64,000 bases of DNA from Ignavibacteriota bacterium (GCA_963801355.1 CAWDEM010000008.1:1632001-1696000); one strand, 5' to 3'. Positions 7,020 through 22,472 are shown, counted from the first letter of the stretch. The notes: generated by a model from the letters alone, not told the origin. Program-made: numbers and translations.

Positions 7020-8444
7020 CTACCTCGTGTACATCCCAATCACCCTCTCGATTGCCGCGCTGCATATCGGATCAAAATCCACTGTGCTGAGTGAGAACAT
7101 GCGGCAATCGAGTGACGGACGGTACAACCCCTTCGCCACGTATCCGGCACCTTCAAACGCACCGACCTTCCCGGCCAGCTCCGCATTCTTGAGGATCTGT
7201 TGTGATGCCTTCATGAGGGGTTCTCGCTTGGTGTAGTAGTCCGGCGCCAGCCGGTCAAGCTTGCCCCGTTCGGCCTCAAGGCTGTCATACGCCTGCTTGC
7301 TCCAGTTCGTCGGCAGTGAGATGCCCGGTGTCAGGAACTCTTTCCATTTGATGTTCTTCTTGTCGAGCAGCGCCGTGATGTTGGGTTCCCACGGTTCAAT
7401 CCCCGCTGGATAGAAATCGTTGTAGGCAGTTGACGATCCATAGTATTCGTCTCCGAGCCCGGCGAACGCATGGCCGAATTCATGCACATAGACGTAGTCC
7501 ATCTGCCATCGCTGATCTGCCTTTTCCTCATTTGTGTATGTCGTGGTATAGAGATTGAGGATGCCACCGCCGCCGTAACGCGTGTCATTCACCAGGATGC
7601 AGAGGCAATCGTACGGGGCCGAGGCCGCGATGTCACGCAGCTTGCGGTTGTCCGCAATCAATACGTACCGGGCCGATCCAAACGTATTGTACTGTGATCC
7701 CAGGGCATTCCGCTTCCAGATATTCTTGTCCGGTATGTCAATTCCCGTCTCATCGGACTGCACTTCGATCGTCCAGACGTTGAAGTCTTTCTTGTGGTTG
7801 CTGAAGGGCTTGGTGCTGAACATGACACTATTGAAATGCTCGGCGTCTTTGCGGAATTTTTCCATATCCTCTTTGGCGTAGCCGTCGCCAAGGATGAGAA
7901 TGTCGACCTTGCCGGACGACGGTCCGTTGGTCATGAGCGGGACGGCCCGGTAGGAGCCGGCGGCTATTTCTTTCTGAACCGCCGTCGGATCATCCGGATC
8001 GACGGTCAGAGAAAAGAGGTCATGAAACACCATGCGCTTATCGCGCCGGGCAATGGTCACCTGCACCTTCCTCTGTGGGTAAGGAAAGCGCACGGTTTCT
8101 TCAAATGTGCGGTAGGCACCGGCGACCGCTTCATCGGTGGTCTGCCACTCCTGAAACATTGACGAAAAGCCCCGGGAATACAGCAACATGTTCGTGCTCT
8201 GGTCGTAGACACGCACCAGGAATTCGCCGATGTTCAACGTATCCAGAAGCTGCGTGCGTGAACCCGGCCAGGGACCTTCCTGATACACCCGGTCCATGCT
8301 GAACTGCTCGACCCCCTTTGTCCCCGTATGATAGTAGTCGATCCGCATGGTGGCATCGGTGAAGTGACGGTCATAGGGAACCCCGGCATTCAACGACCAG
8401 GACGTTGCGAGAAGAAGTGCACAAAGGACGACAATCTGACGCAT
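7020..8444 (-). CDS. Peptidase M64 (IgA peptidase family) metalloprotease
   Basis: Signal peptide; VDILILGDGY, YGGGG, HEFGHAFAGLGDEY zinc motif, FEGAGY..GLYRP..DCRM. Confidence 0.9.
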   Translation of the reverse strand: MRQIVVLCALLLATSWSLNAGVPYDRHFTDATMRIDYYHTGTKGVEQFSMDRVYQEGPWPGSRTQLLDTLNIGEFLVRVYDQSTNMLLYSRGFSSMFQEWQTTDEAVAGAYRTFEETVRFPYPQRKVQVTIARRDKRMVFHDLFSLTVDPDDPTAVQKEIAAGSYRAVPLMTNGPSSGKVDILILGDGYAKEDMEKFRKDAEHFNSVMFSTKPFSNHKKDFNVWTIEVQSDETGIDIPDKNIWKRNALGSQYNTFGSARYVLIADNRKLRDIAASAPYDCLCILVNDTRYGGGGILNLYTTTYTNEEKADQRWQMDYVYVHEFGHAFAGLGDEYYGSSTAYNDFYPAGIEPWEPNITALLDKKNIKWKEFLTPGISLPTNWSKQAYDSLEAERGKLDRLAPDYYTKREPLMKASQQILKNAELAGKVGAFEGAGYVAKGLYRPSLDCRMFSLSTVDFDPICSAAIERVIGMYTR

Positions 8445-8499
8445 GGATCACCTCCAAGAGATGTGTCGAGAGCAACCTGTTATTGTCTGGTATACGAAA

Positions 8500-9669
8500 T
8501 TATCTGCCGAAGAAGAACCGCAGGATCTCCGGGGTACGTTCGCGCCAGCTCGCCCAATCGTGCCCGTCGTGCACTTCGCGGTAGCGGACAGTAACACCGT
8601 CACGGGCGAGTTCCTCGCTGAATTCCCGGTTCTGCACCGGAAAATCATATTCGTCGGTTTGTATGTCGTACCGACCGCAATCGATCCACACCTTCATGGT
8701 CGGCGGAAGCGGTGTCGACTGCCGGCGCGCGGCAAGTGCGGTCCGGAGAATGGGGGTGATCGTGGACGATTGACCGGCGACGCGGTGAAAACAATCGGGA
8801 CGCACAATGGCCATCGTCAATGCAATGTGTCCGCCGCTCGAGATTCCCATCACGCCCCGATGCTCGGGCATTCGCGAGGTGCGATAGACACTGTCGATGA
8901 GAGGCACCAGTTCGTCACAGAAGGCGGCGATGTATTCGGGAGTCGCCAGACCGATGTACTCCCGTTCCCTCTCGACGGGCGGCACGAACACGCCGATGAT
9001 CGGCGGAAGCTGACCGTCGGCAATCAGATTGTCAATGACGGTGGCAAAGGCCGCGTAGCGGAATGCCGATACCCCATCGTGAACATACACCACCGGCAGA
9101 TTGCTCAGGCTCCTGTAACCGGGCGGCAGATAGACGGTCACACTCCGCGGCTTGATACGGGAATCCCTGCTGGCGAAGATCAGCGTGTCCACGGACCCGT
9201 GTCTGATGCCCTCACGCCTGACCGAAAGCAGAGACATCCGGAACCCGGGCATAACGGCCTCGGAGTTCTGAAAGTCGCCGGGAGGTGTCACCCTGCGGTT
9301 TGCCGGATCGAGCTGATAGACACCGTTCACAATGAATTTGTACTCGAGGCGCGAATCCGGCGGCACCGTGTATGAGCGGTAGAAGAACTTCGGGGAGCCC
9401 GCGGTGTCCCCGCAGGGAATGGCCAGGAGGCGCTCAGGCGAGCGCCACCCCTTTTGCAGCGAGCCGTTGACGAGCACCGAATCCGCGCGCCCGAACCAGA
9501 CGAAATGCAGCAGCGAGTCCTGCTCCACCAACGGCGTCCGGCGTCCCGCAAGAACCGCCGTCGCAAGTGCGGCGCGGTCCCGCACGGGCGCGCGCTCAAG
9601 TCCCTTCACGAAATCCGGAAAGAGTTGTTGACCCTGCAGAAGCAGGGCAACTAGAACTGCATACGTCAT
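8500..9669 (-). CDS. Enterochelin esterase (Fes)-like alpha/beta hydrolase with N-terminal Ig/CBM48-like domain
   Basis: LEYKFIVNG..LDPAN, VYLPPGY, PVVYVHDG, nucleophile GISSGG, GHDWASW. Confidence 0.8.
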   Translation of the reverse strand: MTYAVLVALLLQGQQLFPDFVKGLERAPVRDRAALATAVLAGRRTPLVEQDSLLHFVWFGRADSVLVNGSLQKGWRSPERLLAIPCGDTAGSPKFFYRSYTVPPDSRLEYKFIVNGVYQLDPANRRVTPPGDFQNSEAVMPGFRMSLLSVRREGIRHGSVDTLIFASRDSRIKPRSVTVYLPPGYRSLSNLPVVYVHDGVSAFRYAAFATVIDNLIADGQLPPIIGVFVPPVEREREYIGLATPEYIAAFCDELVPLIDSVYRTSRMPEHRGVMGISSGGHIALTMAIVRPDCFHRVAGQSSTITPILRTALAARRQSTPLPPTMKVWIDCGRYDIQTDEYDFPVQNREFSEELARDGVTVRYREVHDGHDWASWRERTPEILRFFFGR

Positions 9670-9750
9670 GAGAGAACCCTTTACATCACCGGGAGATCAC
9701 AGGCCCGGGACAAACGCCGGCGGACGGTCTGTTGGGCCATCGAGCACGGT

Positions 9751-11022
9751 TCACCCGCGGGCGCGGAGGACCGTCCGCTCGTAGTCCCGGATGACGTTCA
9801 TCCATCCCTCCCCGTGCGGCACACCGGCGCGCGCGCAATACGTTTCCCACACCGCGCCGAACGGTAGAGACTTCAACTCTTCGAGCAATGCGAGGCGCCC
9901 GACAAAATCCCCTTCCGCCTCGAGCTGCTCCAACCGCTTGCGGGGCTCGAGGAGGGCGCGGAGAAGGGCCTTCAGGGTCGAGTGGGAACCGAGCACCCAG
10001 GCGCCGATCCGGTTGACGCTGCCGTCAAAGAAGTCGAGTGCGATGTGCACGCGCTGCAGCGCTTCCGCACGAATGATTTCTTCTGCGAGGGCGCTTACTT
10101 CGTCGTTGACTATCACCACATGATCGCTGTCCCACCGTATGCCGCGGCTGACGTGCAGGAGCAACTCATCGACATACAGCAGCAGCGAGGAAACCTTGTC
10201 CGCCACACTCTCGGTCGGATGGAAGTGCCCCAGATCGAGACAGAGCATGACCTTGCGTGTCAGGGCGTAGCCCATGTAGAATTCGTGCGACCCGACGACG
10301 AACGATTCGCTGCCGATGCCGAACAGCTTGCTCTCCACGGCATCTTTCATCTCCTCGGACTCGTAGCGTTTGGTGAAGATGATATCCAGCGCACCGCGCA
10401 ACGCGGCCCGGTGGACGAACCGCCGCACGGTGATGTCTTTTGCGCCGTCCGGGATCCAGATGTTGTGGATGCAAGGCACTCCCTGCATTTTTCCCATCAC
10501 CGCGCTGATTTCACGGCAACGATGCACGTGCTCAATCCAGAAGTCGCGGATGCCAGCGTCGAGACTGCTCAGCGTGAAGCCGCTGTCGGCTTGCGGATGA
10601 GCGAAACAGGTGGAATTGAAGTCGAGCGGGATATCGTGTTCGCGCCCCCAATCCATCCATGTGCGGAAGTGGGCCGGCTCGATGCTGTCACGATCAACTT
10701 TCTTCCCGCCGAAATCTCCGTACATTGCGTGGAGGTTCAGCCGGTGCCTGCCGGGTATCAACGCATAGGCCTTCTCCAGGTCGCGCTGCAGCTCCTGAAT
10801 GGTGCGGGCGCGGCCGGGATACCCGCCCGTCACCTGGATCCCCCCCGAAGCGGTCCCGGCGTCCACGGTTTCAAATCCGTGCACATCGTCGCCCTGCCAG
10901 CAATGGAGCGAGAGTGACACCGATTGCAGGGACTTCATTGCCGCTTCCGTATCCACTCCCAGCTGCGCGTAGCGGTCGCGCGCATGGGCATAAACCTGTT
11001 CAGACGCCGGTTCGGGACTCAT
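9751..11022 (-). CDS. rhaA: L-rhamnose isomerase
   Basis: SLHCWQGDDVHGFE, RLNLHAMY, DAVESKLFGIGSES, LDLGHFHPTE, HVSRGIRWDSDHV; start trimmed to ATG 11022. Confidence 0.93.
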   Translation of the reverse strand: MSPEPASEQVYAHARDRYAQLGVDTEAAMKSLQSVSLSLHCWQGDDVHGFETVDAGTASGGIQVTGGYPGRARTIQELQRDLEKAYALIPGRHRLNLHAMYGDFGGKKVDRDSIEPAHFRTWMDWGREHDIPLDFNSTCFAHPQADSGFTLSSLDAGIRDFWIEHVHRCREISAVMGKMQGVPCIHNIWIPDGAKDITVRRFVHRAALRGALDIIFTKRYESEEMKDAVESKLFGIGSESFVVGSHEFYMGYALTRKVMLCLDLGHFHPTESVADKVSSLLLYVDELLLHVSRGIRWDSDHVVIVNDEVSALAEEIIRAEALQRVHIALDFFDGSVNRIGAWVLGSHSTLKALLRALLEPRKRLEQLEAEGDFVGRLALLEELKSLPFGAVWETYCARAGVPHGEGWMNVIRDYERTVLRARG

Positions 11023-11128
11023 GAGATTCCTCTGGTAGGTGTTGCTGGAAAGCGTTCGGGACTCCTCGCTGCGTAGGTGAAGCCGCCGGGTATATTGTAC
11101 CAAACGGGGGAGAGAATTGCAAAGGATC

Positions 11129-11141
11129 GGGGTCTGACCCC
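11129..11141. repeat. REP-like palindrome GGGGTCTGACCCC
   Basis: Perfect palindrome around a central base; the same core recurs at 57976 and 58036. Confidence 0.5.
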
Positions 11142-11204
11142 TGGCTGCGTGCTGGTTGCTTCTCCCCGCGGATCTGCTTACCATTGACCATTCGACAACC
11201 CTGC

Positions 11205-11269
11205 GACCGTTCACACCACGACAGGAAGGCTGTTTGGACCACCACACAAAGACCGTTCAGACCACAACA
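11205..11269 (+). promoter_or_regulatory. Three direct repeats with 23-bp period (putative LytTR-type operator)
   Basis: GACCGTTCACACCACGACA (11205), GGCTGTTTGGACCACCACA (11228), GACCGTTCAGACCACAACA (11251), immediately upstream of the 11278 start. Confidence 0.5.
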
Positions 11270-11277
11270 CAAGGACC

Positions 11278-11895
11278 ATGCTGATGAAGATCCGCCCCTC
11301 CACCCTGCTTGCCACGTCCCTCCTGGTTTGCGCACCGCTGCTGGTCGCCCAGGAAACCGTGAAAGAAAAATCCACCGGCAAGTCGTTCCCCACCACGATC
11401 ACAGTTTCCCACGAAGGGAAAGACCTCACCCTCGCATTGACGGGAACCACCGTCCGGAAGAAACTGATTATCAAGGTCTATGCGATTGCCCACTACATGC
11501 AGGACCTGCCCAAGGGCAGTGAAAAAGAACTCGTTGCTGCCGTCCTCACCGATGGAAAGGCAAAACAGCTCACAATGGAGTTCGTGCGGGATGTGAGCAG
11601 GGAACAGATACGGAATGCCTACAAAGACGGATTCCAGGAGAATGCTTCGAAGGACGAGCAGAAGGCTATCGCCCCCCTCGTGGAACAATTCCTGGACTAC
11701 TTCACAGGGGATGTCAAAGAGAATGACCGCTTCATACTGCGCTGGTTGCCCGGCGGCGTCGTTCAGGCGCAGGTACAGGGTTCGGAGAAGCCGGCGATCA
11801 CTAACCCCGTGTTCGCACGGGTCCTCTGGACAATTTGGTTTGGTGAGGATTCGATTGTAGACCCGGAAGATCTTGTGAGCCGGATGTTGAACTGA
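11278..11895 (+). CDS. Chalcone isomerase-like (CHI-fold) secreted protein
   Basis: Signal peptide; FP.TI..L.LTG..VRKKLIIKVYAIAHY, F.RDV, FARVLWTIWFG. Confidence 0.8.
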   Translation: MLMKIRPSTLLATSLLVCAPLLVAQETVKEKSTGKSFPTTITVSHEGKDLTLALTGTTVRKKLIIKVYAIAHYMQDLPKGSEKELVAAVLTDGKAKQLTMEFVRDVSREQIRNAYKDGFQENASKDEQKAIAPLVEQFLDYFTGDVKENDRFILRWLPGGVVQAQVQGSEKPAITNPVFARVLWTIWFGEDSIVDPEDLVSRMLN

Positions 11896-11907
11896 GAGCG
11901 GGTAGCG

Positions 11908-12612
11908 TCATTCCCCTTCGATCCGATGGCGGACCTTGTCGAGGAATGGAGTGTCGGCGACAATGCGGCCGTTTTCCAGCAAAAGGAAACGGCCGCAACT
12001 TTCTTGTGCCGTGGCCAGATCATGCGTGGCGAGGAGGAAGGCGGAATCGGTTTCCCTCAAGACCTGTGCAAGTGCACGCCGGCCGGGGGGATCCAGCCCC
12101 GCGGTCGCTTCGTCCAGGAGGAGCACAGCCGGCTTCACAACAAGCACACCGGCGAGCGCAATCCTCAGACGCTGCCCGTGAGAAAGCTCGTACGGTTCCT
12201 TGTCGGCCAGCTCTTCCACGCCGAACGTGTGCAACGCCTCCCGCGCGCGTGTGAGTGCGTTCCCGGGTGCCACCCCCTTCCGCAGCAGACCGTATGCCAC
12301 GTCGTCCAGCACTCGCGGGAAGAGCAGCTGGTCTTCCGGTGTCGCAAACAACATCCCGATGCTTGCGCGGATCTCATTCAGCGTTGACCTGTGCATCGTC
12401 ACGCCGTCCACGCTGATCTCTCCCGTCGTTTCCACAAGTCCGGCTACAGCGAGGAGCAACGTGGTCTTCCCTGACCCGTTGAGGCCGAGCAACGCTGCAT
12501 GTTCCCCACGCTTCAGGTCGAAGGAACAGTCATGCAAGGCCGCCCCGGACGCCGTCGGGTACCGCGCGATGACATTGCGAAAGCTGAGCACACAGCCGGT
12601 CGGGGTTGTCAT
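11908..12612 (-). CDS. ECF transporter ATPase (EcfA/CbiO/NikO-like)
   Basis: Walker A GLNGSGKT, PEDQL..V.DDVAYG, signature LSHGQ, Walker B LLLDE, GLDP, ATHD. Confidence 0.9.
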   Translation of the reverse strand: MTTPTGCVLSFRNVIARYPTASGAALHDCSFDLKRGEHAALLGLNGSGKTTLLLAVAGLVETTGEISVDGVTMHRSTLNEIRASIGMLFATPEDQLLFPRVLDDVAYGLLRKGVAPGNALTRAREALHTFGVEELADKEPYELSHGQRLRIALAGVLVVKPAVLLLDEATAGLDPPGRRALAQVLRETDSAFLLATHDLATAQESCGRFLLLENGRIVADTPFLDKVRHRIEGE

Positions 12613-13274
12613 ACCATCACCCGGAGGACAATGGTGGCTATGAGAACCGTCGCGCAGAGCAGGAATACAAGGACATCGAAGGCAAGCCAGGGCCTGTCGC
12701 GCGGCGGCGGAACCGGAGAACCGTAACCCCGCATTTCCAGAGCGTGGGCCACCCGGTTTGCTTTGAAGATCACCCGCGGGATCCAGACGCGCGGAAGCGC
12801 GTGGAGCAGTTCCCAGCCACCGAAACCCCGGGGGATGGCCCCCCGGATTACGATTGCCTGTCGGATCTTCACTGTTTCCCGGAGCAATACGGAGGCCTGA
12901 TGCAACATCTGCAGGAGGAGAAGCTTCACCATCGCGGGCAGAGGCAAACGGGTCACAGCATCATGCAGCGCCGGATAGCCCATCGTCCCCAACATCGTCA
13001 CGCCGGTGAGAGTAGTTGCCGCACCCTGCGCGACCGACGCCTGCGGGAGAACAAGGAGCATCGGCAGATAGACCACCAGCGTGCCTCCCAGAAGACGCAG
13101 GAATTTCGCAGGATCCGGACGGATGAGTATGAGCGCGACGGCTATCGGGACGACGAGTGAAATCTCTCCGGCCGGGATGCTCACTGGCAGGACGAGACAC
13201 GCCGCGGTCAGCGCGACACCCGCCAGAACTCCCGCAAGCGGGTGGACTTCACATTGCCGGGTCATGACGATCAT
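12609..13274 (-). CDS. ECF transporter T component (EcfT/CbiQ-like)
   Basis: Multi-TM protein with two X-Arg-Gly coupling motifs (AIVIRG, ALEMRGY); ATGA overlaps on both sides. Confidence 0.8.
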   Translation of the reverse strand: MIVMTRQCEVHPLAGVLAGVALTAACLVLPVSIPAGEISLVVPIAVALILIRPDPAKFLRLLGGTLVVYLPMLLVLPQASVAQGAATTLTGVTMLGTMGYPALHDAVTRLPLPAMVKLLLLQMLHQASVLLRETVKIRQAIVIRGAIPRGFGGWELLHALPRVWIPRVIFKANRVAHALEMRGYGSPVPPPRDRPWLAFDVLVFLLCATVLIATIVLRVMV

Positions 13275-13888
13275 GAGTGGTTCCGCAACTTTCTTCCCGT
13301 GATGCAGTAGCGGTCCGGGGCGTCCGTGCACTCCTCCACAACGAAGCCGGCGGGCGGGAACAACGCAGCGACATCCGCCGCGGGAGGGAGCAGATCGTGC
13401 ACGATTGGGGGCGCGGCAGATGCATGGATCCGATTGATGGTTGCGCGGCCGTTGATGTGCAGGATCGTGAAAGCAGAGCCCTCCCGGAGAACCCTGTTCA
13501 TCTCGCGCAGCACGGCAGAAGGATGAACGAAGTGGGGCCAGGCCGAAAAACAGATGACGCGATCACAGCTCGACCGGGCCAGGGGCAAAGCCGCGGCATC
13601 CGTCTTACACCACCGGACCCGCGGATCGGGGAATTTCCCGCGTGCCCTTTCGATCATCGCCGCTGAAAAGTCCACAGCCGTGATGAACGCCTCCGGCCCG
13701 AGCTTTTCCAGAAGTACGGCAGTCAAATTCCCCGTGCCGCAACCGAGATCGACCACGTGCTCATCCGGTCCCAGATGCATGCAGTCCAGCTCGATGCTGA
13801 GCGCGGCACGCACCTGGTCGTGATCGGTGAACCCGTCCCAGCGGGAAGAGAGTTCATCAAAATATGCCTGCTTCTGTTTGTCACCCAT
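13271..13888 (-). CDS. Class I SAM-dependent methyltransferase
   Basis: Motif I VVDLGCGTG, AVDFSAAM, DAAALP, FSAWPHF, EMNRVL. Confidence 0.88.
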   Translation of the reverse strand: MGDKQKQAYFDELSSRWDGFTDHDQVRAALSIELDCMHLGPDEHVVDLGCGTGNLTAVLLEKLGPEAFITAVDFSAAMIERARGKFPDPRVRWCKTDAAALPLARSSCDRVICFSAWPHFVHPSAVLREMNRVLREGSAFTILHINGRATINRIHASAAPPIVHDLLPPAADVAALFPPAGFVVEECTDAPDRYCITGRKLRNHS

Positions 13889-14429
13889 GGAGTTTTCGTG
13901 CGAGGAGTGCGACGGGAGGGACAACGACTATCATCAATAACACCCCCGGCCAGCCTGCGAAGAAAGAAATGCCAGCCACAAAAGCTGCAGGTAGGTCCAG
14001 CGCCCCGGAGACAAGATACATGAGGCCGGCATTGAGGAACCGGCCCGCGATGAGGACCGGCACCAGGAAAGCGACAGGGGTGACACCCGGCCAGCGGACG
14101 CGCAGCGCTGCCAGGACGCCTGCCATGAGCGCCAGCTCGACGGACATCACCGGTGCGATGGGCGGCATCAGCGGCGGCATCCCTGTAATCAACGCGGAAA
14201 GCATGGGGACGAGCAATGCGGTTGTTCCCGCAACTCCCCATCGCACGAAGAAGGGCAATGCCATCAGCGGAATGTACATCGGCATGAACATATGCCCGAG
14301 CTGCACGAGGTGAAACAGGGCCGGCAGGGCAAGTGCCGCGGCTCCAAACAGTCCTCCAAAGGCGAGTTCCCGCGGCGCCAGGAAGGATTTTCTGCGGAGG
14401 TCGATTTGCCCGGTCAGTGCATCTCCCAC
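13881..14429 (-). CDS. ECF transporter S (substrate-binding) component, non-NikM type
   Basis: About 6 TM helices; GLFGAAALALPALFH, FMPMYIP, P.LS..ITGMPP, PG...MIV; lies within an EcfT/EcfA operon; start uncertain. Confidence 0.7.
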   Translation of the reverse strand: MGDALTGQIDLRRKSFLAPRELAFGGLFGAAALALPALFHLVQLGHMFMPMYIPLMALPFFVRWGVAGTTALLVPMLSALITGMPPLMPPIAPVMSVELALMAGVLAALRVRWPGVTPVAFLVPVLIAGRFLNAGLMYLVSGALDLPAAFVAGISFFAGWPGVLLMIVVVPPVALLARKLHG

Positions 14430-16243
14430 CGCACACCTCCGATCAACGTCCGGCCGGGCATCGGATAGTCCGCCATGGTCTGGTACGCCTGATTGAACAA
14501 GTTCTCGCCTGAAAGAAACACTGAGATCCCGGGCAATGGTGTGACGGTCACACGCGCCTGAACGACCGGATAGTCAGGCAGGGCCTGTTTCGACCTGTCG
14601 GCACCATACAGTCCGGCAACGTACTGCAGCCCCGCACTTGTCGCATACATCTCCTCAACGTAGGACAGACCAATGTAGAGCTTGTGCCGGGGATTGGCCA
14701 TTGTTTGATCGCCGGGGGCCAGGTAGCCGTATGTAAGATCAGATGCGACCGAGGAAGAAAAGCGGACATTTCCGGAAAGTTCCACCCCGCGGTGTACAAA
14801 CGAACCCGAGTTCCGGAGTTGGAGGTTGGGATAGACTCCTTCCGTCCGTATGATGTTCCGACCTTCCGATTGGAATGCCGAAAACTCCAGAGAGACCCGG
14901 TCGCCGAACGCGTGCAGAAGACCCACCTCGTAGTTCCACATCTGTTCAGGCTCCAGCCCCGGGGTCGGAGCCGGGAAAAGATAGAGTTCACGGATGGTCG
15001 GACTGCGAAAGCCCCGTGAGGCCGTGGCACGGAGCGTCGTCGCATCGTCGGTCCGCCAGGCAACGCCGAATTGCGGCGCAAGAGCACTCCCGTACACGTT
15101 GCTATGGTTCAGACGCAAACCGGCGTTCACCATCACGCTGGAAAAGAGTTCCTGCTGCACCAACCCATAGACACCGTATTCTGACTGGCGGTGTATGCCA
15201 TAATCGAGTCCGGCTCTCGTGTTGTACGCTTCACCGCCGTAGTCCTTGAAGTCCAAACCGAGCGTGACTATTGTTCCCCGGGCCATGGTGATTCCCTGGT
15301 AGAACATCACGCCAATGTTGTTGTCCGTCGAATGGTAGCCGTCATAGATGTCGTGCACACCGTAGTTGTAGAAGGCCTTCAGCGCTCCCCGGACGTTTGC
15401 GTAGCGGTTCTCCAGAGCAAACCCCGAGCTCCCGCGGACGATGTCAACCCAATTGTTGATCCTGGGTGCTGCAGCGGGTCCCGGATCGTATGTGCGGAAT
15501 CCCGAGACGCTGGCATCGGCGCTGAAAACATATTCCGGAGAAAACGCATAGTTGCCGCGCACCGAACCATTGTTGATCTTGAACGAGGAAAACGGACGGT
15601 GCCCGTCAGTAGCGTACCGGCTCCCGCGCACTGCAACGCCACCCTGCTCGCCTCCGAAGGCAATCCCACCCTCCAGCTTAAACGTACCGAAATTGCCTCC
15701 GGCCATGGACGCATTCCCGTCCCAACCCCCGGCTGGTATACGTGAAGAGATAATGTTGATCACGCCTCCCATCGCGTTTGTGCCGTGGAGGAGAGATGCA
15801 GGCCCGCGGATGACCTCGACCCGGTCGACTCCGGCCGTCACGTACGTGTCGGGAAGCGGATGTCCCATCAGCCCCATCAACTGCGGCCGGCCATCGGTGA
15901 GGACGAGTATTCCTGTGTTGGGGCTCCCTCCGGTTCCCCGGATGGAAATACCCCCGGCAGCCCCGGTCGAGACGCCGTACCCCAGCACCCCCCGCTCGGT
16001 GACAAAGATCCCGGGGACCACTGTATTCAATACCGCGAGCATCGATGTTTCCCCGCTCCGGCGTATATCTTCCCGGCTCACGATGGACACGGCGTTCGGA
16101 ACGGTGCTCCTGAGCACTTCGATGTTCGTGCCGGTAATGACCACCGGATCAAGAACGAAGGTGCGAGCAGTATCGCGTTCAGCCTGCCCCAGTACGCAGA
16201 CGGGGAGCAACAGAGACACCATGATGGAAGAGAATGCTCTCAT
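14414..16243 (-). CDS. TonB-dependent receptor (small, BtuB-like size)
   Basis: Signal peptide, TonB box DPVVITGT, plug ISIRG..DG.P..RVEVIRGPASLLHGTNAMGGVINII, GFRSP, ENLFN..Y..PGR..W terminus. Confidence 0.93.
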   Translation of the reverse strand: MRAFSSIMVSLLLPVCVLGQAERDTARTFVLDPVVITGTNIEVLRSTVPNAVSIVSREDIRRSGETSMLAVLNTVVPGIFVTERGVLGYGVSTGAAGGISIRGTGGSPNTGILVLTDGRPQLMGLMGHPLPDTYVTAGVDRVEVIRGPASLLHGTNAMGGVINIISSRIPAGGWDGNASMAGGNFGTFKLEGGIAFGGEQGGVAVRGSRYATDGHRPFSSFKINNGSVRGNYAFSPEYVFSADASVSGFRTYDPGPAAAPRINNWVDIVRGSSGFALENRYANVRGALKAFYNYGVHDIYDGYHSTDNNIGVMFYQGITMARGTIVTLGLDFKDYGGEAYNTRAGLDYGIHRQSEYGVYGLVQQELFSSVMVNAGLRLNHSNVYGSALAPQFGVAWRTDDATTLRATASRGFRSPTIRELYLFPAPTPGLEPEQMWNYEVGLLHAFGDRVSLEFSAFQSEGRNIIRTEGVYPNLQLRNSGSFVHRGVELSGNVRFSSSVASDLTYGYLAPGDQTMANPRHKLYIGLSYVEEMYATSAGLQYVAGLYGADRSKQALPDYPVVQARVTVTPLPGISVFLSGENLFNQAYQTMADYPMPGRTLIGGVRWEMH

Positions 16244-16251
16244 TTTCCCCT

Positions 16252-16674
16252 TCAGGCAATATCGTGAACCGACGTCAGCGAGATATTGCTGTGCTTGACC
16301 CCCTTGAAACTCGCCAGCGCCGCCGCAAGCGAACGCACGGCTCTCACCGGTCCACGGAGCAGAATCACTTCCAGGCAATTGTCGTGATCGAGGTGGACGT
16401 GGGTTGTGGTGATAATCTGATGATGCGCGTGATGCTGCACATCGGTCAGCTTTTCCTCCAGATCCCTTTGATGGTGGTTGTACACAAGCGTCAGGACCCC
16501 GAACGCGTCTGCATCCGGATCCTGGATGCGTTCTTCCACCAATCGTGCGCGCATCAGGTCGCGGAACGCCTCAGAGCGCGTGCCGTATCCCGCATGATCG
16601 ATGAATGTGTCGAATTTGCGCAATAGATCGGCATCGATCGAGACGCCGAAACGGACCAGACGGTGAGAAGGCAT
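16252..16674 (-). CDS. nikR: Nickel-responsive transcriptional regulator NikR
   Basis: RHH RFGVSID..LL..FD..GY.TRSEAFRDL.R; metal-binding domain YNHHQR..QH..HVHLDHDNCLEV..LRG with Ni-ligand His/Cys residues. Confidence 0.95.
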   Translation of the reverse strand: MPSHRLVRFGVSIDADLLRKFDTFIDHAGYGTRSEAFRDLMRARLVEERIQDPDADAFGVLTLVYNHHQRDLEEKLTDVQHHAHHQIITTTHVHLDHDNCLEVILLRGPVRAVRSLAAALASFKGVKHSNISLTSVHDIA

Positions 16675-16675
16675 A

Positions 16676-16721
16676 GTAGCACTTTTTCTTTAAAAGTAGC
16701 ACGATAAACACTGAAAATCAA
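16676..16721 (-). promoter_or_regulatory. Putative NikR operator GTGCTAC-N13-GTGCTAC overlapping promoter TTGATT-N17-TACTTT
   Basis: Half-sites at 16696-16702 and 16676-16682 with a 13-bp AT-rich spacer; -35 at 16716-16721, -10 at 16693-16698; ends 1 nt before the nikR ATG. Confidence 0.75.
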
Positions 16722-16782
16722 GAACACATCAGTGGCATCTTTCATCCCGGGATGCTATTTTGCCATGTACTACGGGGCTGTT

Positions 16783-18723
16783 ATGATGAAACGATGGATG
16801 GTCTCTACCGTACTCCCGGCCTGTGCGCTGCTCCTGGCTTCCTGCAGCGGATCGACGACGTGGCTCGATGACGAGCAGCTCCGCACGGCTCTCCGAGAAA
16901 CCGCATCCGCCGGCGTGCAGAACCCCGACGCCGGAGCCCAGGTCCTGCTGGACGAAGGATCGATGGAAATCAACAGCGGAGGCGAAATCGCGCTCAGCAT
17001 GTTCGAGCGACACCGCATCGTCCGCATACTGAAGCCCCGCGGCCAACGTTTTGCCAATATTATCATCCCCTACGGATCCACGTCGATCGTCCATGGCATT
17101 CAGGCCCGCACAATTGAGCCGGGCGGGCGCATCGTCCCATTGCAGGACACGGATATTTTCGACGTCAGTCTCTATCCGAATTTTGTGTTCTTCTCCGACC
17201 AACGGGCAAAAATCTTCACGTTGCCCGCCATCGAGGACGGCGCCATCATCGAGTACCGGTATCGCGTCGCAATCAAAGGCCGGACATTCTGGCATTCCTG
17301 GACTTTCCAGGACGACGCACCGGTAGCCCTGTCGCGGTTCACGCTGGTGAAACCGGGTGACTGGGACGTCGTCTTCAGGTCGTATGGCACGCCGATCGTC
17401 CCTGCAGTGACAACAGCACCTGCAGGATTCAGATCCACGCACGTATGGGAGGCCCGCAATTTGCCTCCGCTCCGGAGCGAGTTCGGCATGCCCCCCAGCC
17501 AGGAGGTCGCCACGCGTATTGCTCTTGCTCCCGTGGGCTTCAAGACCTGGGAGGATGTCGCACACTGGTATGCGGACATCGTCGGCAAACATAACGTCGG
17601 GGGAGCTGAAGTCGAAGCGATGGCCGAAAGTCTGGCGCGCACGGCAGACTCCGACATTGATCGGCTCCGTCGCTTGTTCGAATGGGTGCGTGACCAGGTG
17701 CGGTACGTGGCCATCGAGGTCGGTGTCGGTGGTTATGAACCACACAACGCCGACGAAGTCTTCGCAAAGCGCTACGGCGATTGCAAGGATCTGGTGATGC
17801 TCCTGAGCGCGATGGCCCGTGCGGTGAAGATCGACGTGCGGCCTGTACTGATCAGCACGTGGCACAACGGCAGGGCTGACACACTTCTGCCGTCGGCACT
17901 GCAATTCAATCACCTCATCGGCTATGCGCCTGACGTCGCGCCGGGGGGAATCTGGCTTGACGCGACTGACAAAGCCGGACCATTTGGCTCGCTCCCCTGG
18001 TACGATCAGGGGATGCCGGTGATTGTCGCCGGCCCGGCGGACAGAGGTTTCCGTGCAGTCACACCTCGGGTTGCCGCCTCAGCCAACGCCACCGCCGTGG
18101 ACTGGACGGTGGAACTCGACGCCAATGGCTCCGCCCTGGTCAAGGGAACAACAGTGTTCACAGGAGCATCCGCACTGGGGCTGCGGAACGACCTGCGAGT
18201 CGCGGACACGTCGGACGTACGCCAGTGGCTCGGGACGTCATTGGCCCGCCGGTGTCCGGGTGCCACACTCGTGAGCTACATTCCCCCTTCGGTGCGTCCT
18301 CCTCGTGACACGTTGGTGGTGTCCTACACGTTCCGCGCCCCGTCATTTGGCGTGCGACGCGAGTCATTGCTCGTCATCCGTCCCTGGGCCTTCAACGCGT
18401 CATCGCTGGCAGACTACTTCCGCGAACAGCAGCGCACATACCCTGTGCGCTTTGAGTACCCTTCGGAGTCCTCGCTCCGGCTCACCATCTGGGCTCCGCT
18501 CGGGTGGCGGCATCAAACACAATCTTCCGCAGATTCGCTCCTGGCTCCATGCGGCAGAGGCGAGTGGCGCATGACCGCGCAACCGGATTCCGCGTGGCTC
18601 TCCATGAAAGTGAATTTACAGGGAGAAGATCTGATGCCGGCGGAATACCCGGCATTCAGGAATTTCCTGGATGGTGTGCGGATGAGAGAAGGGGCGGAAA
18701 TAACGCTGTCAAGGAGAGAGTAG
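16783..18723 (+). CDS. DUF3857 + transglutaminase-like domain lipoprotein
   Basis: Lipobox LLASC; DUF3857 features (ARTI.P.G, P.IE.GAIIEYRY); catalytic triad YGDCKD, FNH, LDAT. Confidence 0.85.
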   Translation: MMKRWMVSTVLPACALLLASCSGSTTWLDDEQLRTALRETASAGVQNPDAGAQVLLDEGSMEINSGGEIALSMFERHRIVRILKPRGQRFANIIIPYGSTSIVHGIQARTIEPGGRIVPLQDTDIFDVSLYPNFVFFSDQRAKIFTLPAIEDGAIIEYRYRVAIKGRTFWHSWTFQDDAPVALSRFTLVKPGDWDVVFRSYGTPIVPAVTTAPAGFRSTHVWEARNLPPLRSEFGMPPSQEVATRIALAPVGFKTWEDVAHWYADIVGKHNVGGAEVEAMAESLARTADSDIDRLRRLFEWVRDQVRYVAIEVGVGGYEPHNADEVFAKRYGDCKDLVMLLSAMARAVKIDVRPVLISTWHNGRADTLLPSALQFNHLIGYAPDVAPGGIWLDATDKAGPFGSLPWYDQGMPVIVAGPADRGFRAVTPRVAASANATAVDWTVELDANGSALVKGTTVFTGASALGLRNDLRVADTSDVRQWLGTSLARRCPGATLVSYIPPSVRPPRDTLVVSYTFRAPSFGVRRESLLVIRPWAFNASSLADYFREQQRTYPVRFEYPSESSLRLTIWAPLGWRHQTQSSADSLLAPCGRGEWRMTAQPDSAWLSMKVNLQGEDLMPAEYPAFRNFLDGVRMREGAEITLSRRE

Positions 18724-18758: not shown

Positions 18759-20075
18759 TCACCGCGCGGTTCGTTCCTTCACCGCGTTCAGCGACTCCCG
18801 CACAGCTTCAATGGTCCTGTCGATATCCTCATCACTATGTGCCGCGGAGATGAACGCCGCTTCGAATTGTGAGGGTGCCAGGTAGACACCCCGGCTGAGC
18901 ATTTCGCGGAAAAACGCTCCGAACTGTTCACGGTCCGCCACCGCCGCCGATGTGTAGTCGCGCACCGGATGACGGGAGAAAAAGAGCGTGAACATGGAAC
19001 CCACACGGTTCTGACGGATCGGCAGCCAGAGATCGTCGATGACCCGCTGAATCCCCGCACTCAAACGGCCGGCTTTTTTATCGAGCGCGGTGTAGAAGTC
19101 CGCATCCTCACTAATGATGGAGAGCGTTTCCAGCCCTGCGGCCATTGCCAGGGGATTGCCCGATAACGTGCCCGCCTGGTACATTGGCCCCGAAGGCGCC
19201 ACCATCTCCATGATTCTTCGTTTCCCGCCGTAGGCCCCGACCGGGAGGCCCCCCCCGATAATCTTTCCGAGCGTGGTAAGATCCGGATCGATGCCGTACA
19301 GCTCCTGCGCGCCGCCCCGGGCCACCCGGAATCCCGTCATCACTTCGTCGAAAATCAGCACTGCACCGTTTTCCGTGCAGAGGTCCTTCACATCCTGCAG
19401 AAAACCCGGCTCCGGCGGCACGCATCCCATGTTTCCCGCCACCGGTTCGACGATCACTGCGGCAATCTCACCTTTGCAGGACGCGAAGTGGTGGCGAACC
19501 GACGCGGAGTCGTTGAAACCCGCAGTCAATGTCCCCGCCGCCGTTCCCGCCGGCACCCCCGGACTGTCGGGCACGCTCAGGGTCATTGCACCGGATCCGG
19601 CCTTGATCAAGAATGAGTCAGCATGCCCGTGGTAGCATCCTTCGAACTTGATGATTTTCTCCCTGCGGGTGTACGCGCGCGCAAGCCGGATGGCGCTCAT
19701 GGTTGCCTCGGTGCCCGAATTCACCATGCGCACCATTTCGATCGACGGCACGATCTTCGTGATCATTTCCGCCATGCGCACTTCGAGAGCGGTCGGTGCT
19801 CCAAAACTCGTGCCGTCCAGCGCGGTCCTCCTGATCGCCTCAACAACACGCGGATGAGCGTGGCCGAGGATCATCGGCCCCCACGATCCGACGTAGTCGA
19901 TGTAGGAATGTCCGTCAACGTCCAGGAGCCACGACCCTGAGGCCCGCGTGATAAACAACGGTGTGCGGCCCACGGATCTGAAGGCCCGCACCGGTGAGTT
20001 GACCCCGCCGGGGATGAGCTTTTGCGCTTCCCCGAACAGCGCGTCGGAATTCGGTGTCAGGAACATGCCGTGCAT
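18759..20075 (-). CDS. hemL: Glutamate-1-semialdehyde 2,1-aminomutase
   Basis: [48 protein letters not shown] Lys in [10 protein letters not shown]; start 20075 or 20066. Confidence 0.97.
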
Positions 20076-20082
20076 CGGTCCT

Positions 20083-21078
20083 TCAGTGTTGTGCATCGAG
20101 TATGCGGGCCGCTTCTTTCGCAAAGTACGTCAGGATGATATCCGCCCCGGCCCGTTTGATGCTGGTGAGCATCTCCATCATGACGCGATCCCCATCCACC
20201 CATCCCATTGTTGCCGCCGCCTTGAGCAGGGAATATTCGCCGCTGACGTTGTAGGCCGCGGTGGGCATGCCGAAACGCTCCTTCACTCTATAAATGACAT
20301 CCAGATACGACAGGGCGGGTTTGACCATGACGATGTCCGCGCCTTCTTCGATATCCTGCGCGACTTCACGCAGGGCTTCGTCGCTGTTCGCGGGATCCAT
20401 TTGATGGGAACGCCTGTCCCCGAATTTCGGCGTGCTCTCGGCTGCCTCCCTGAACGGACCATAGAACCCCGACGCGTACTTGGCCGCATACGACATGATG
20501 GGGAGCAGTGAGAACCCGTTGGCATCCAGTACTCTTCGAATGGCCCCCACACGTCCGTCGAACATATCCGACGGCGCCACCATGTCAGCACCCGCCCGCG
20601 CGTGGCTCAAGGCCTCTCTGGTCAACAACTCCACCGATTCGTCGTTGACGATTTCCACTCCCCGCACGATGCCGCAGTGGCCGTGCGATGTGTATTCGCA
20701 GAGGCAGACATCGGTGATCAGATAGAGACCGGGGACCTGGTGTTTCACCGCACGCAACGCCTGTTGGACGATCCCATTGTCGTCATACGCACCCGAGCCG
20801 ACTTCATCCTTATGCTCCGGGATGCCGAAAAAAATCACGGCGGGGATGCCCATCTCATGCACATCCCGGCATTCCCGGACAATCTGGTCAACGGACATCT
20901 GGAAGACACCCGGCATCGCGCCGATTTCCTTCTTGACATTCGTCCCCGGCACAACGAAAAGCGGATAGATGAAATCCTTTTTCGAAAGCTCCGTTTCACG
21001 CACCATGGAGCGAAGGGTTTCCTGCATGCGCGTGCGCCGCAAGCGGCTGACCGGATACTGACCACCGTGTGAAGTCAT
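20083..21078 (-). CDS. hemB: Porphobilinogen synthase (Zn-dependent)
   Basis: [51 protein letters not shown]. Confidence 0.97.
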
Positions 21079-22472
21079 GACTTCCTCGTGAATGTACTGC
21101 GCTCTGTGAGTGCGGAAATACGCTCGGCGGTCTTCTTGCCGTTCATGACGCAATCGCCGACCGCGATCCCGCCCCGATAGTTGCTGCAGATGAAGAGACC
21201 CCGTCTGTCCCGCTCGAGCTGCTCGATGGCATCGATCACCCGCTGGTATCCGACGTTGTACTGCGGGATCGCCCTGTCCCAGCGGTAGATCCGCGAGAAG
21301 ACCGGCTCACCGGAGACGTTCATGATCGCACCAAGCTCTTTAAGTACGATGTTCTGCAGTTCCGTATCGTCCGCTTCCAGGACTTCCGGCTGACGGGAGC
21401 CGCCGACGAATGTCGTGAGGGCGATATGTCCCGCAGGCGCACGCCCGGGGAAGATGACCGATGACCATATCGTGCCGAGGATCTTCCGTTTCTCCCTGGC
21501 CGGAATGAGGTAACCGAACCCATCAAGAGAACACCCGCATTGGTCACGCCGGAACCCGAGATGAACCTCTGCAACGGGAGGATAGTACACGTTGCCCAGC
21601 ATCGTCGAGAGTTCAGGAGCCAGAGGCCGGAGAAGATCAGCAGCGGCGTACGCCGGCACTCCCACAACGACTGCATCACCTTCCAGGATTTCTCCACCGG
21701 TCGTGCGTACCAGGAAGCGGCTCCCCGCCGAATCGGCGGATGCGTGGTGTTCAATGCTCTTCACCTCCATCCTGTAGCGGACCCGTTCGCCAAGGCCCCT
21801 GGCGATTGCTTCCGGAAAGGTCTGCATCCCCATAGCAAACGAAAACATGCGTGCCCGGTCTTTCGCCACCTCGGCCCTCTGTTTCCGCTCGCGTGCACCC
21901 TTCATCATCCCTTTGATCAGCCCCCCGTATTTCTCTTCCAGCGCGTACAGTTTAGGGAATGCCGCCCGGACACTCAGCTCCTCCGGATTTCCGGCGAACA
22001 CACCGGCAACAAAGGGATTGATGCCATAGTCAAGAATTTCCCTCCCCAGGCGCCGCTCGACGAACTCCGCAATGGTCTCTTCCTTCGTTCCCCTCCCGAT
22101 CAGCGGTTCCTTCAGGAGCCGCAATTTGCCGGATGTAGACCAGAGGCGTGTCGAGAGGAACGCACCCGGACTCATAGGAATCGGGTGCAACGCCCCGTCG
22201 CGGAGAACATAGCGCTTGTTCGATTCGTCATTGGCGTACCGCCTCTCCGCTTCGATCCCCAGCTCACTGAACATCTCCTTGAAAATCGGGGTTGTCTCCA
22301 GTGCGCTGTTCGGTCCGGTCTCAACAAGCCAGCCGCCCTCCAGTACCGTCCGCATTGTGCCGCCGGGCACCGGTGCCGCTTCCAGCACGGTGACATCCCA
22401 TCCCGCGCGCTGCGCCCAGAAGGCTGCTGTGAGGCCCGAAATCCCCGCCCCGATGATGATGACATGGCTCAT
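21075..22472 (-). CDS. hemY: HemY-type FAD-dependent proto/coproporphyrinogen oxidase
   Basis: IIGAGISGL, ETGPNS, GFGYL, LGTIWSS..FP.RAP, AIPQY, GIAVGDC; position in the heme operon. Confidence 0.92.
   Translation of the reverse strand: MSHVIIIGAGISGLTAAFWAQRAGWDVTVLEAAPVPGGTMRTVLEGGWLVETGPNSALETTPIFKEMFSELGIEAERRYANDESNKRYVLRDGALHPIPMSPGAFLSTRLWSTSGKLRLLKEPLIGRGTKEETIAEFVERRLGREILDYGINPFVAGVFAGNPEELSVRAAFPKLYALEEKYGGLIKGMMKGARERKQRAEVAKDRARMFSFAMGMQTFPEAIARGLGERVRYRMEVKSIEHHASADSAGSRFLVRTTGGEILEGDAVVVGVPAYAAADLLRPLAPELSTMLGNVYYPPVAEVHLGFRRDQCGCSLDGFGYLIPAREKRKILGTIWSSVIFPGRAPAGHIALTTFVGGSRQPEVLEADDTELQNIVLKELGAIMNVSGEPVFSRIYRWDRAIPQYNVGYQRVIDAIEQLERDRRGLFICSNYRGGIAVGDCVMNGKKTAERISALTERSTFTRKS

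Follow-up and report, generated by a model that had tools for sequence, protein, structure and literature searches.

A NikR-linked operon with a new ECF S component and an embedded methyltransferase, a probable nickel uptake system of uncultured bacteria

Introduction

What is carried into the cell by an operon that joins a nickel-responsive repressor to an outer-membrane receptor, an energy-coupling factor (ECF) importer and an S-adenosylmethionine (SAM)-dependent methyltransferase? The question is posed by six genes and an operator at positions 11908-16702 of a 64,000-nucleotide (nt) stretch of DNA from an Ignavibacteriota bacterium (GCA_963801355.1 CAWDEM010000008.1:1632001-1696000). This whole stretch is termed the window and positions are counted along it. 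An earlier note on the same DNA had suggested that the operon imports an organic complex of nickel, with F430 and a pincer nucleotide among the possible cargoes.

Our analysis indicates that the operon is very probably a nickel uptake system. The best explanation of the whole is NikR-repressed nickel acquisition spanning both membranes, with the methyltransferase acting on the organic partner of nickel, and we give this combined account somewhat more credence than doubt. That nickel is the cargo, and the chemical form in which it travels, are matters that we infer from the regulation, conservation and gene contexts described below.

Operon organization and conservation

The six genes are all encoded on the minus strand, at 11908-16674, in the order nikR, TonB-dependent receptor, S component, SAM methyltransferase, T component and ECF ATPase. 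The features, with protein lengths in amino acids (aa), are as follows.

16676..16702, minus strand: NikR-type operator, GTGCTAC-N13-GTGCTAC, one base ahead of the nikR ATG
16674..16252, minus strand: nikR, nickel-responsive ribbon-helix-helix repressor, 140 aa (NF003381 equivalog and PF08753 NikR_C)
16243..14414, minus strand: TonB-dependent outer-membrane receptor, 609 aa, BtuB-sized (Plug and barrel domains)
14429..13881, minus strand: S component of a new family, 182 aa, six helices (fold match of a predicted model)
13888..13271, minus strand: class I SAM-dependent methyltransferase, 205 aa (Methyltransf_25, _11 and _31)
13274..12609, minus strand: T component of a divergent CbiQ/EcfT family, 221 aa, membrane protein (weak CbiQ match; orthologues match PF02361)
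12612..11908, minus strand: ECF-type ABC ATPase, 234 aa, single copy (ABC_tran and ECF ATPase models)

The earlier note had described six tightly joined genes on one strand, behind an operator-like repeat and without NikN or NikL. Coordinates and domain matches confirm the arrangement on the minus strand, the repeat is a genuine NikR-type element ahead of nikR, and the junctions, which are either overlaps or a gap of 8 nt, leave no space for the two missing subunits. Calculated from the coordinates, the gap separates nikR from the receptor; the receptor and S genes overlap by 16 nt, the S and methyltransferase genes by 8 nt, and the methyltransferase/T and T/A pairs (A being the ATPase) by 4 nt each. 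No further open reading frame (ORF) for NikN, NikK or NikL fits between the six packed genes. The start of the receptor was set at the Met preceding a signal-peptide-like stretch.

How widely is this arrangement held? A search with the S protein returned 188 relatives, every named one of which is labelled hypothetical, and when one genome per prokaryote species was scanned for a pattern, an S relative was confirmed in 376 species genomes. Locus counts were taken from 80 of these 376 stretches, all of them records of metagenome-assembled genomes (MAGs). Gene presence was scored by tblastn with the six window proteins, and phyla were taken from the record titles. Loci, genomes, contigs and proteins are cited by L, G, C and P numbers. 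The 80 loci span at least 10 phyla, with Bacteroidota, Ignavibacteriae, Lentisphaerae, Verrucomicrobia/Kiritimatiellia, Myxococcota, Acidobacteriota/Aminicenantes and Planctomycetota among those named, together with Gemmatimonadales, Fibrobacterota, Bdellovibrionota and several candidate phyla. S is rare in the phylum of the window itself, where four of 401 sampled genomes encode it.

A receptor gene immediately precedes S in 51 of the 66 loci with enough upstream sequence, S is followed at once by the methyltransferase in 72 of 78, and T and A come next in 68 of 70. The receptor-S-methyltransferase-T-A cassette that was first recognized in the window is therefore a conserved unit. When all ORFs of the loci were clustered the sole extra recurrent element was a pair of small lipoprotein genes upstream of the receptor (26-27 of 80 loci), and no metallophore biosynthesis gene recurred near the cassette. 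The lipoproteins, exemplified by P0121 and P0122 (L057 4834-6025, Myxococcota), contain Cys residues, match no Pfam family and are encoded downstream of a NikR box; in that lineage the two genes are apparently part of the operon.

Small parts of the stretch are shared by metagenome runs from soil, sediment, peat and wetland, the best DNA run having 0.26 of its words in common; these are word matches only, and no RNA run was listed among them.

Regulation by NikR

Conserved boxes and nikR genes across loci make the predicted nickel control of the operon, via NikR, well supported on comparative grounds. The repressor scores 172 bits against the NF003381 equivalog model (cut-off 105) and matches NikR_C with an E-value of 1.1e-32. 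NikR_C is matched once in the host genome, by this protein. The two half-sites of the operator, read on the minus strand, share one orientation and are separated by an N13 spacer. A published description gives the delta-proteobacterial NikR consensus as GTGTTAC-[N13/14]-GTAACAC, with the half-sites reversed in one species (PMC545781), and the window box agrees with this delta-proteobacterial pattern except in the inner bases of one half-site. In the Bacteroidota relatives L002, L013, L044 and L049 the corresponding position, adjoining nikR, is taken by GTGTTAC-N13/14-GTGCTAC.

Two patterns were applied, a strict set of 14 NikR-type half-sites and the relaxed form GTNNNAC-N12-15-GTNNNAC. The strict set has a single match in the whole 4.8 Mb host genome, and this is the operon box. 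Since an estimate based on uniform composition predicts a few strict matches by chance in 4.8 Mb, the weight of the window box rests on its position and on conservation in related loci. There, in 1.02 Mb of sequence, 37 of 40 strict boxes fall no more than 4 kb upstream of S. Sites of the relaxed pattern are strongly enriched 0.5-3.5 kb upstream of S, immediately preceding the first gene of the operon or, in Myxococcota, the two lipoprotein genes.

Among 54 loci with full flanks nikR is nearby in 24, a strict upstream box is present in 27 and one or the other in 38, with 14 having a box and no nikR nearby. The NikR link suggested for the window thus extends to most of these loci. A B12 riboswitch had been raised by the earlier note as another regulator; Rfam detects no riboswitch on the cassette strand in any of the nine loci examined of the 16 that lack a NikR signal. 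The only cobalamin riboswitches encountered are two in tandem at L009 5799-6678 (minus strand), on the strand opposite the cassette and beside a divergent receptor fragment, and control of the cassette by a B12 riboswitch is not supported. A promoter and terminator scan of 11600-16900 gave counts not above those of shuffled sequence and was discarded.

The ECF importer and the outer-membrane receptor

Judged by sequence, the S protein belongs to a new S-component family, outside every named family and distinct from NikM/CbiM. The window protein matches no Pfam or NCBIfam family, its only sub-threshold match being unrelated. Neither it nor any of 24 relatives matches CbiM (PF01891) or the Pfam and NCBIfam models of the named S families (RibU, ThiT, FolT, BioY, PanT, QueT etc.). 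The generic PF12822 matches 13 of the 24 relatives weakly and the window protein not at all, and a profile of the family finds nothing among PDB sequences at an E-value of 10. The N-terminus reads MGDALT rather than Met-His and is variable in the alignment.

The fold is more informative. The AlphaFold2 (AF2) model has a predicted local distance difference test (pLDDT) score of 87.5 and a predicted template modelling (pTM) score of 0.81. All of the top 20 Foldseek matches in the PDB are ECF S components (RibU, ThiT, FolT, PanT, BioY and similar) with template modelling (TM) scores of 0.42-0.65, the E-values being weak at 0.008-1.2, none at or below 0.001. In the Atlas the clusters nearest to S are named ECF S component. 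The description of S as vitamin-type, non-NikM and devoid of an N-terminal Met-His is consequently sound, and classification with hidden Markov models assigns the protein neither to NikM/CbiM nor to any characterized vitamin family.

Alignment of 81 sequences identifies seven invariant residues (His40, Met51, Tyr52, Met84, Met95, Glu98 and Arg130); Met49 and Trp160 are conserved in 80 and His46 in only 59. Helix 1 carries an invariant stretch of small residues, Gly29-Ala30-Ala31. Most of the invariant positions fall in outer loops or in the outer halves of helices, which, by the usual topology of S components, we take to be the substrate-binding side. In database proteins P0124-P0128 (439-498 aa) S is fused to an ATPase; one of these, from a Kiritimatiellia MAG, is annotated as an ECF ATP-binding protein.

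The T component of the window matches CbiQ only below the cut-off (E 0.0025-0.0035), and all 23 of its orthologues match PF02361, with a best E-value of 5.5e-15. Two conserved stretches, ETRRI..A..VRG and AMELRGY, which include the conserved Arg144-Gly145 and Arg182, presumably mark the positions of the two coupling-helix Arg-Gly motifs. The ATPase matches ABC_tran (PF00005, E 8.7e-29), and its best NCBIfam models, TIGR04521, TIGR04520 and cbiO, score 150-169 bits, all under their equivalog cut-offs. The importer is thus a group-I-like ECF transporter with a new S family.

The receptor has Plug (PF07715, E 1.6e-18) and barrel (PF00593, E 1.1e-36) domains. It scores far under the cut-off against every named NCBIfam family, the best full-length alignment being to the TonB-B12 model TIGR01779 (122 bits against a cut-off of 599.7).

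The methyltransferase

The best NCBIfam match of the methyltransferase, the DVU_1556 family NF045667, scores 67.7 bits, below the cut-off of 155. The SAM-binding residues Asp47, Gly49, Gly51, Thr52, Gly53 and Asp73 are invariant in all 28 family members compared, as are three histidines, His119, His144 and His155. The AF2 model (pLDDT 95.8) retrieves SAM methyltransferases with Foldseek, the top matches including the small-molecule enzymes Coq5, UbiG and MitM. This fold search returned generic small-molecule methyltransferases and no hint of a substrate, and the protein is no nearer ChlM/BchM than dozens of other families.

The enzyme is closely tied to S. In five loci (L018, L030, L044, L053 and L076) the two form a single ORF with the enzyme at the C-terminus of S, and in database protein P0123 S occupies residues 26-163 and the methyltransferase 167-367, joined by a linker of three residues. 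At L052 (8530-9921) one ORF combines a truncated methyltransferase (residues 9-159) with T, which is either a fusion or an assembly frameshift. In the 401-genome sample of the phylum strong methyltransferase matches occur only beside S (G000, G053 and G257). One of these genomes holds a second cassette at L082 1625-5165 (G257, contig C18), consisting of nikR, a receptor and divergent S (30% identity) and methyltransferase (32%) genes behind a GTGTTAC-N13-GTAACAC box. It has no T or A gene and may borrow the T/A module of the canonical cassette of G257.

Is the enzyme then an accessory of the ECF importer alone? Gene context suggests otherwise. At L089 the order is nikR, receptor, ZnuA-like protein, ATPase, ABC-3 permease and methyltransferase; the ZnuA match is weak (E 1.5e-13) and comes from a single locus. 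Transporters of the ZnuA/ABC-3 type usually carry bare ions. At L088 a NikR box is followed by Peripla_BP_2, FecCD, ATPase and methyltransferase genes, and at L094 nikR adjoins the methyltransferase. A subfamily that is 35% identical to the window enzyme follows hypF-hypA-hypB, with hypD divergent, in all four of the genomes that hold it among 81 searched, the 81 having been sampled within one order, that of G299. These four loci (L081 8394-12369 of G299, L171, L172 and L173) contain no importer. The NikR-linked ZnuA/ABC-3 and FecCD operons and the hyp contexts tie the role of the enzyme to nickel generally and, read in this way, the family is one that tracks nickel rather than the ECF machinery.

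In a metagenome scan about 12 of 80 kept loci held full-length members of the family; the others were generic SAM-motif matches and were not counted. Among the full-length members, L085, L087, L092 and L095 tell little of gene context, their contigs being short or their flanks uninformative.

Proposed function and alternatives

When nickel is scarce NikR would leave the GTGCTAC-N13-GTGCTAC box and the six genes would be transcribed. The TonB-dependent receptor would carry a nickel species over the outer membrane, and the dedicated ECF importer, with its new S, its own CbiQ-like T and one ATPase, would carry it over the inner membrane. On the cytoplasmic side the methyltransferase would lie beside S, to the C-terminus of which it is fused in some lineages. 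There it may methylate the small organic molecule that accompanies nickel, whether this is a chelator brought in from outside or a ligand that buffers nickel in the cytoplasm. The methylated ligand would bind nickel less tightly and the metal so freed would pass to chaperones of the HypA/HypB type.

That the enzyme methylates the organic partner of nickel, be it imported or a buffer ligand, and thereby frees nickel for HypA/HypB is a tentative proposal, in which we place less than even confidence. More specific, and rather doubtful, is the version in which nickel enters as an organic complex and the methyltransferase, docked on or fused to the importer, methylates the ligand as it emerges, breaking the complex and passing nickel to HypA/HypB. 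An organic complex as cargo would accord with the vitamin-type fold of S, with the conserved Arg, Tyr and Trp and the Met lining, with the FecCD variant and with a methyltransferase of small-molecule type tethered at the exit of S.

Several observations weigh against the account given above, in whole or in part. The ZnuA/ABC-3 variant, the hyp subfamily, the lack of recurrent metallophore genes and the cassettes without the enzyme all speak for bare Ni2+ as the cargo, and the first two argue against a role for the enzyme that is limited to an imported organic ligand. The methyltransferase is absent from its cassette position in six loci, four of which (L011, L026, L034 and L065) keep the binding residues of S; L083 is also S-T-A without the enzyme, and two methyltransferase-less genomes (G402 and G410) contain no family member at an E-value of 1e-25. 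Transport is therefore not strictly dependent on the enzyme. Distant family members (L164, L165 and L166) are found in contexts with no visible nickel link, next to a papain-like protease, an aldo-keto reductase, a response regulator and a radical SAM protein. Met is an unusual Ni(II) ligand, and the four conserved Met residues make direct metal binding by S uncertain. Neither nikR nor a strict box is found at 16 of the 54 full-flank loci. Finally, a CbiM-family gene is also present in 16 of 40 cassette genomes, so that the cassette is not always the sole candidate importer.

The strongest alternative is that bare Ni2+ is imported, bound by His, Glu and Met residues of S, and that the methyltransferase is a nickel-handling factor linking import to HypA/HypB. 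Such a factor might use a methyltransferase fold to accept or chaperone nickel, or it might be an enzyme that modifies a cytoplasmic nickel-binding molecule or protein. The enzyme ends a NikR-linked operon for a transporter of the bare-ion type and, in the four hyp-linked genomes, follows the chaperone genes with no importer at hand; its three histidines are invariant in 28 of 28 sequences, His40 and Glu98 of S in 81 of 81, and no gene for making a metallophore recurs near the cassette. Set against this, the invariant SAM-binding motifs indicate catalysis and not a mere scaffold, the conserved Arg, Tyr and Trp together with the Met lining of S would fit an organic ligand, and the ZnuA assignment depends on one weak match at one locus. 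We regard import of the bare ion with such a factor as unlikely.

Could the cargo instead be a ready-made nickel macrocycle or cofactor, for instance F430-like nickel tetrapyrroles from methanogens, salvaged as a source of nickel or for use as a cofactor and modified by the methyltransferase? The receptor is BtuB-sized and, among NCBIfam models, aligns best over its full length with that of the B12 receptor, though far below the cut-off. One variant operon encodes an importer of the Peripla_BP_2/FecCD type, which carries heme, B12 and siderophores, and in S the invariant His might serve as an axial ligand and the invariant Arg might bind carboxylates. Yet no tetrapyrrole gene recurs beside the cassette, and the heme genes of the window are not retained next to it elsewhere. 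The ZnuA/ABC-3 and hyp contexts are at odds with such a cargo, the methyltransferase shows no special kinship to ChlM/BchM, and no F430 enzyme is known from these bacteria. Salvage of a macrocycle is accordingly improbable, and for F430 or a pincer nucleotide, the cofactors named in the earlier note, we find no specific support.

It is very improbable that the cargo is not nickel at all but a vitamin-like compound or another metal, the NikR link reflecting cross-regulation or a NikR-family regulator with another effector: the vitamin-type fold of S, four conserved Met residues that could accommodate a soft metal, Cu(I) for example, and the 16 loci without a NikR signal can be cited in favour, but NikR scores as an equivalog, its boxes are conserved across phyla, no sense-strand riboswitch precedes the cassette in the nine loci inspected and the methyltransferase family recurs with HypA/HypB.

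Host genome and neighbouring genes

The host genome, in 8 contigs and 100% complete at 4.8 Mb, encodes [NiFe]-hydrogenase large subunits and three LarA homologues. The latter (Lar_N matches) are located on contig C4 of G000, at about 1165456-1418954. Their presence suggests use of a nickel-pincer cofactor, which would add to the nickel demand of the cell. CbiM (PF01891), NiCoT and HupE/UreJ have no match in the host genome, NikABCDE-type systems not having been searched for. HypA is found above the cut-off in 30 of 40 cassette genomes. With a CbiM-family gene in 16 of these 40, we abandoned the view that NikM/CbiM is invariably replaced by the cassette.

Divergent from the nikR promoter region, at 16732-18723 on the plus strand, is a gene for a DUF3857 and transglutaminase-core protein. 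Beyond it, at 18759-22472 on the minus strand, are genes for a class-III aminotransferase (hemL-like), ALAD (hemB) and an amine-oxidase-family protein resembling protoporphyrinogen oxidase. Neither the DUF3857/transglutaminase gene nor the heme genes are conserved beside the cassette in other loci. With a divergent gene intervening and no recurrence, the heme genes were rejected as part of the system; their proximity is coincidental, as had been suspected. Downstream of the operon (7020-11895) are genes for an M64 peptidase, a putative esterase, L-rhamnose isomerase and a chalcone-isomerase-like protein, with no link to the operon.

Comparison with known systems

The known routes of nickel uptake are NikABCDE, NiCoT, NikMNQO, HupE/UreJ and NiuBDE with FrpB4. 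The system described here resembles NikMNQO and CbiMNQO, the group I ECF transporters of Ni2+ and Co2+, in that the gene for the substrate-binding subunit is accompanied by genes for its own CbiQ-family T and for a CbiO-like ATPase. It differs from them in having no PF01891 M subunit, no N-terminal Met-His and no NikN, NikK or NikL, and in an operon that includes a TonB-dependent receptor and a SAM methyltransferase. Control by NikR, here predicted, through a box of the GTGTTAC-N13/14-GTAACAC type is shared with delta-proteobacterial nik(MN)QO (PMC545781). With RibU, ThiT, FolT, PanT and BioY the S component has in common, in the predicted model, the six-helix fold; unlike these vitamin-type proteins it belongs to none of their families by sequence, has a dedicated T/A module and is predicted to be NikR-regulated.

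Helicobacter pylori possesses NikR-regulated, TonB-dependent nickel uptake, in which FrpB4 and FecA3 act with NixA and NiuBDE. That system too has a NikR-controlled TonB-dependent receptor feeding an inner-membrane nickel importer; the likeness is one of description only, and here the inner-membrane importer is of the ECF type, the genes form one operon and a methyltransferase is included. A conceptual parallel, and no more than that, is offered by ChuW/HutW, in which radical SAM methylation of heme releases iron. In both cases SAM-dependent methyl transfer to an imported metal complex would free the metal. Unlike ChuW, a radical SAM enzyme acting on heme, the protein considered here is a class I methyltransferase of 205 aa.

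No paper describing the cassette or a NikR-linked methyltransferase was found in the searchable literature, the coverage of which excludes most subscription journals and supplements. The operon looks like an undescribed, widespread nickel route of uncultured bacteria. What is new is an ECF importer of the NikR regulon whose S component forms a new family and whose operon takes in an outer-membrane receptor and a methyltransferase, the latter fused in some cases.

Implications

Given S relatives in 376 species genomes and at least 10 phyla, a common importer may be missing from models of how hydrogenases are supplied with nickel in communities of soil, sediment, peat and wetland. The methyltransferase family, with its links to three importer types and to HypA/HypB, would be an unrecognized player in nickel trafficking, and its substrate would reveal either a new route of ligand release for nickel or a new nickel hand-off protein. 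If the ligand is methylated at the importer, the system would unite metal import with modification of the cargo by a built-in enzyme. A class I SAM enzyme would then be seen for the first time to release a metal through methylation, with one family serving ECF, ABC and Hyp systems.

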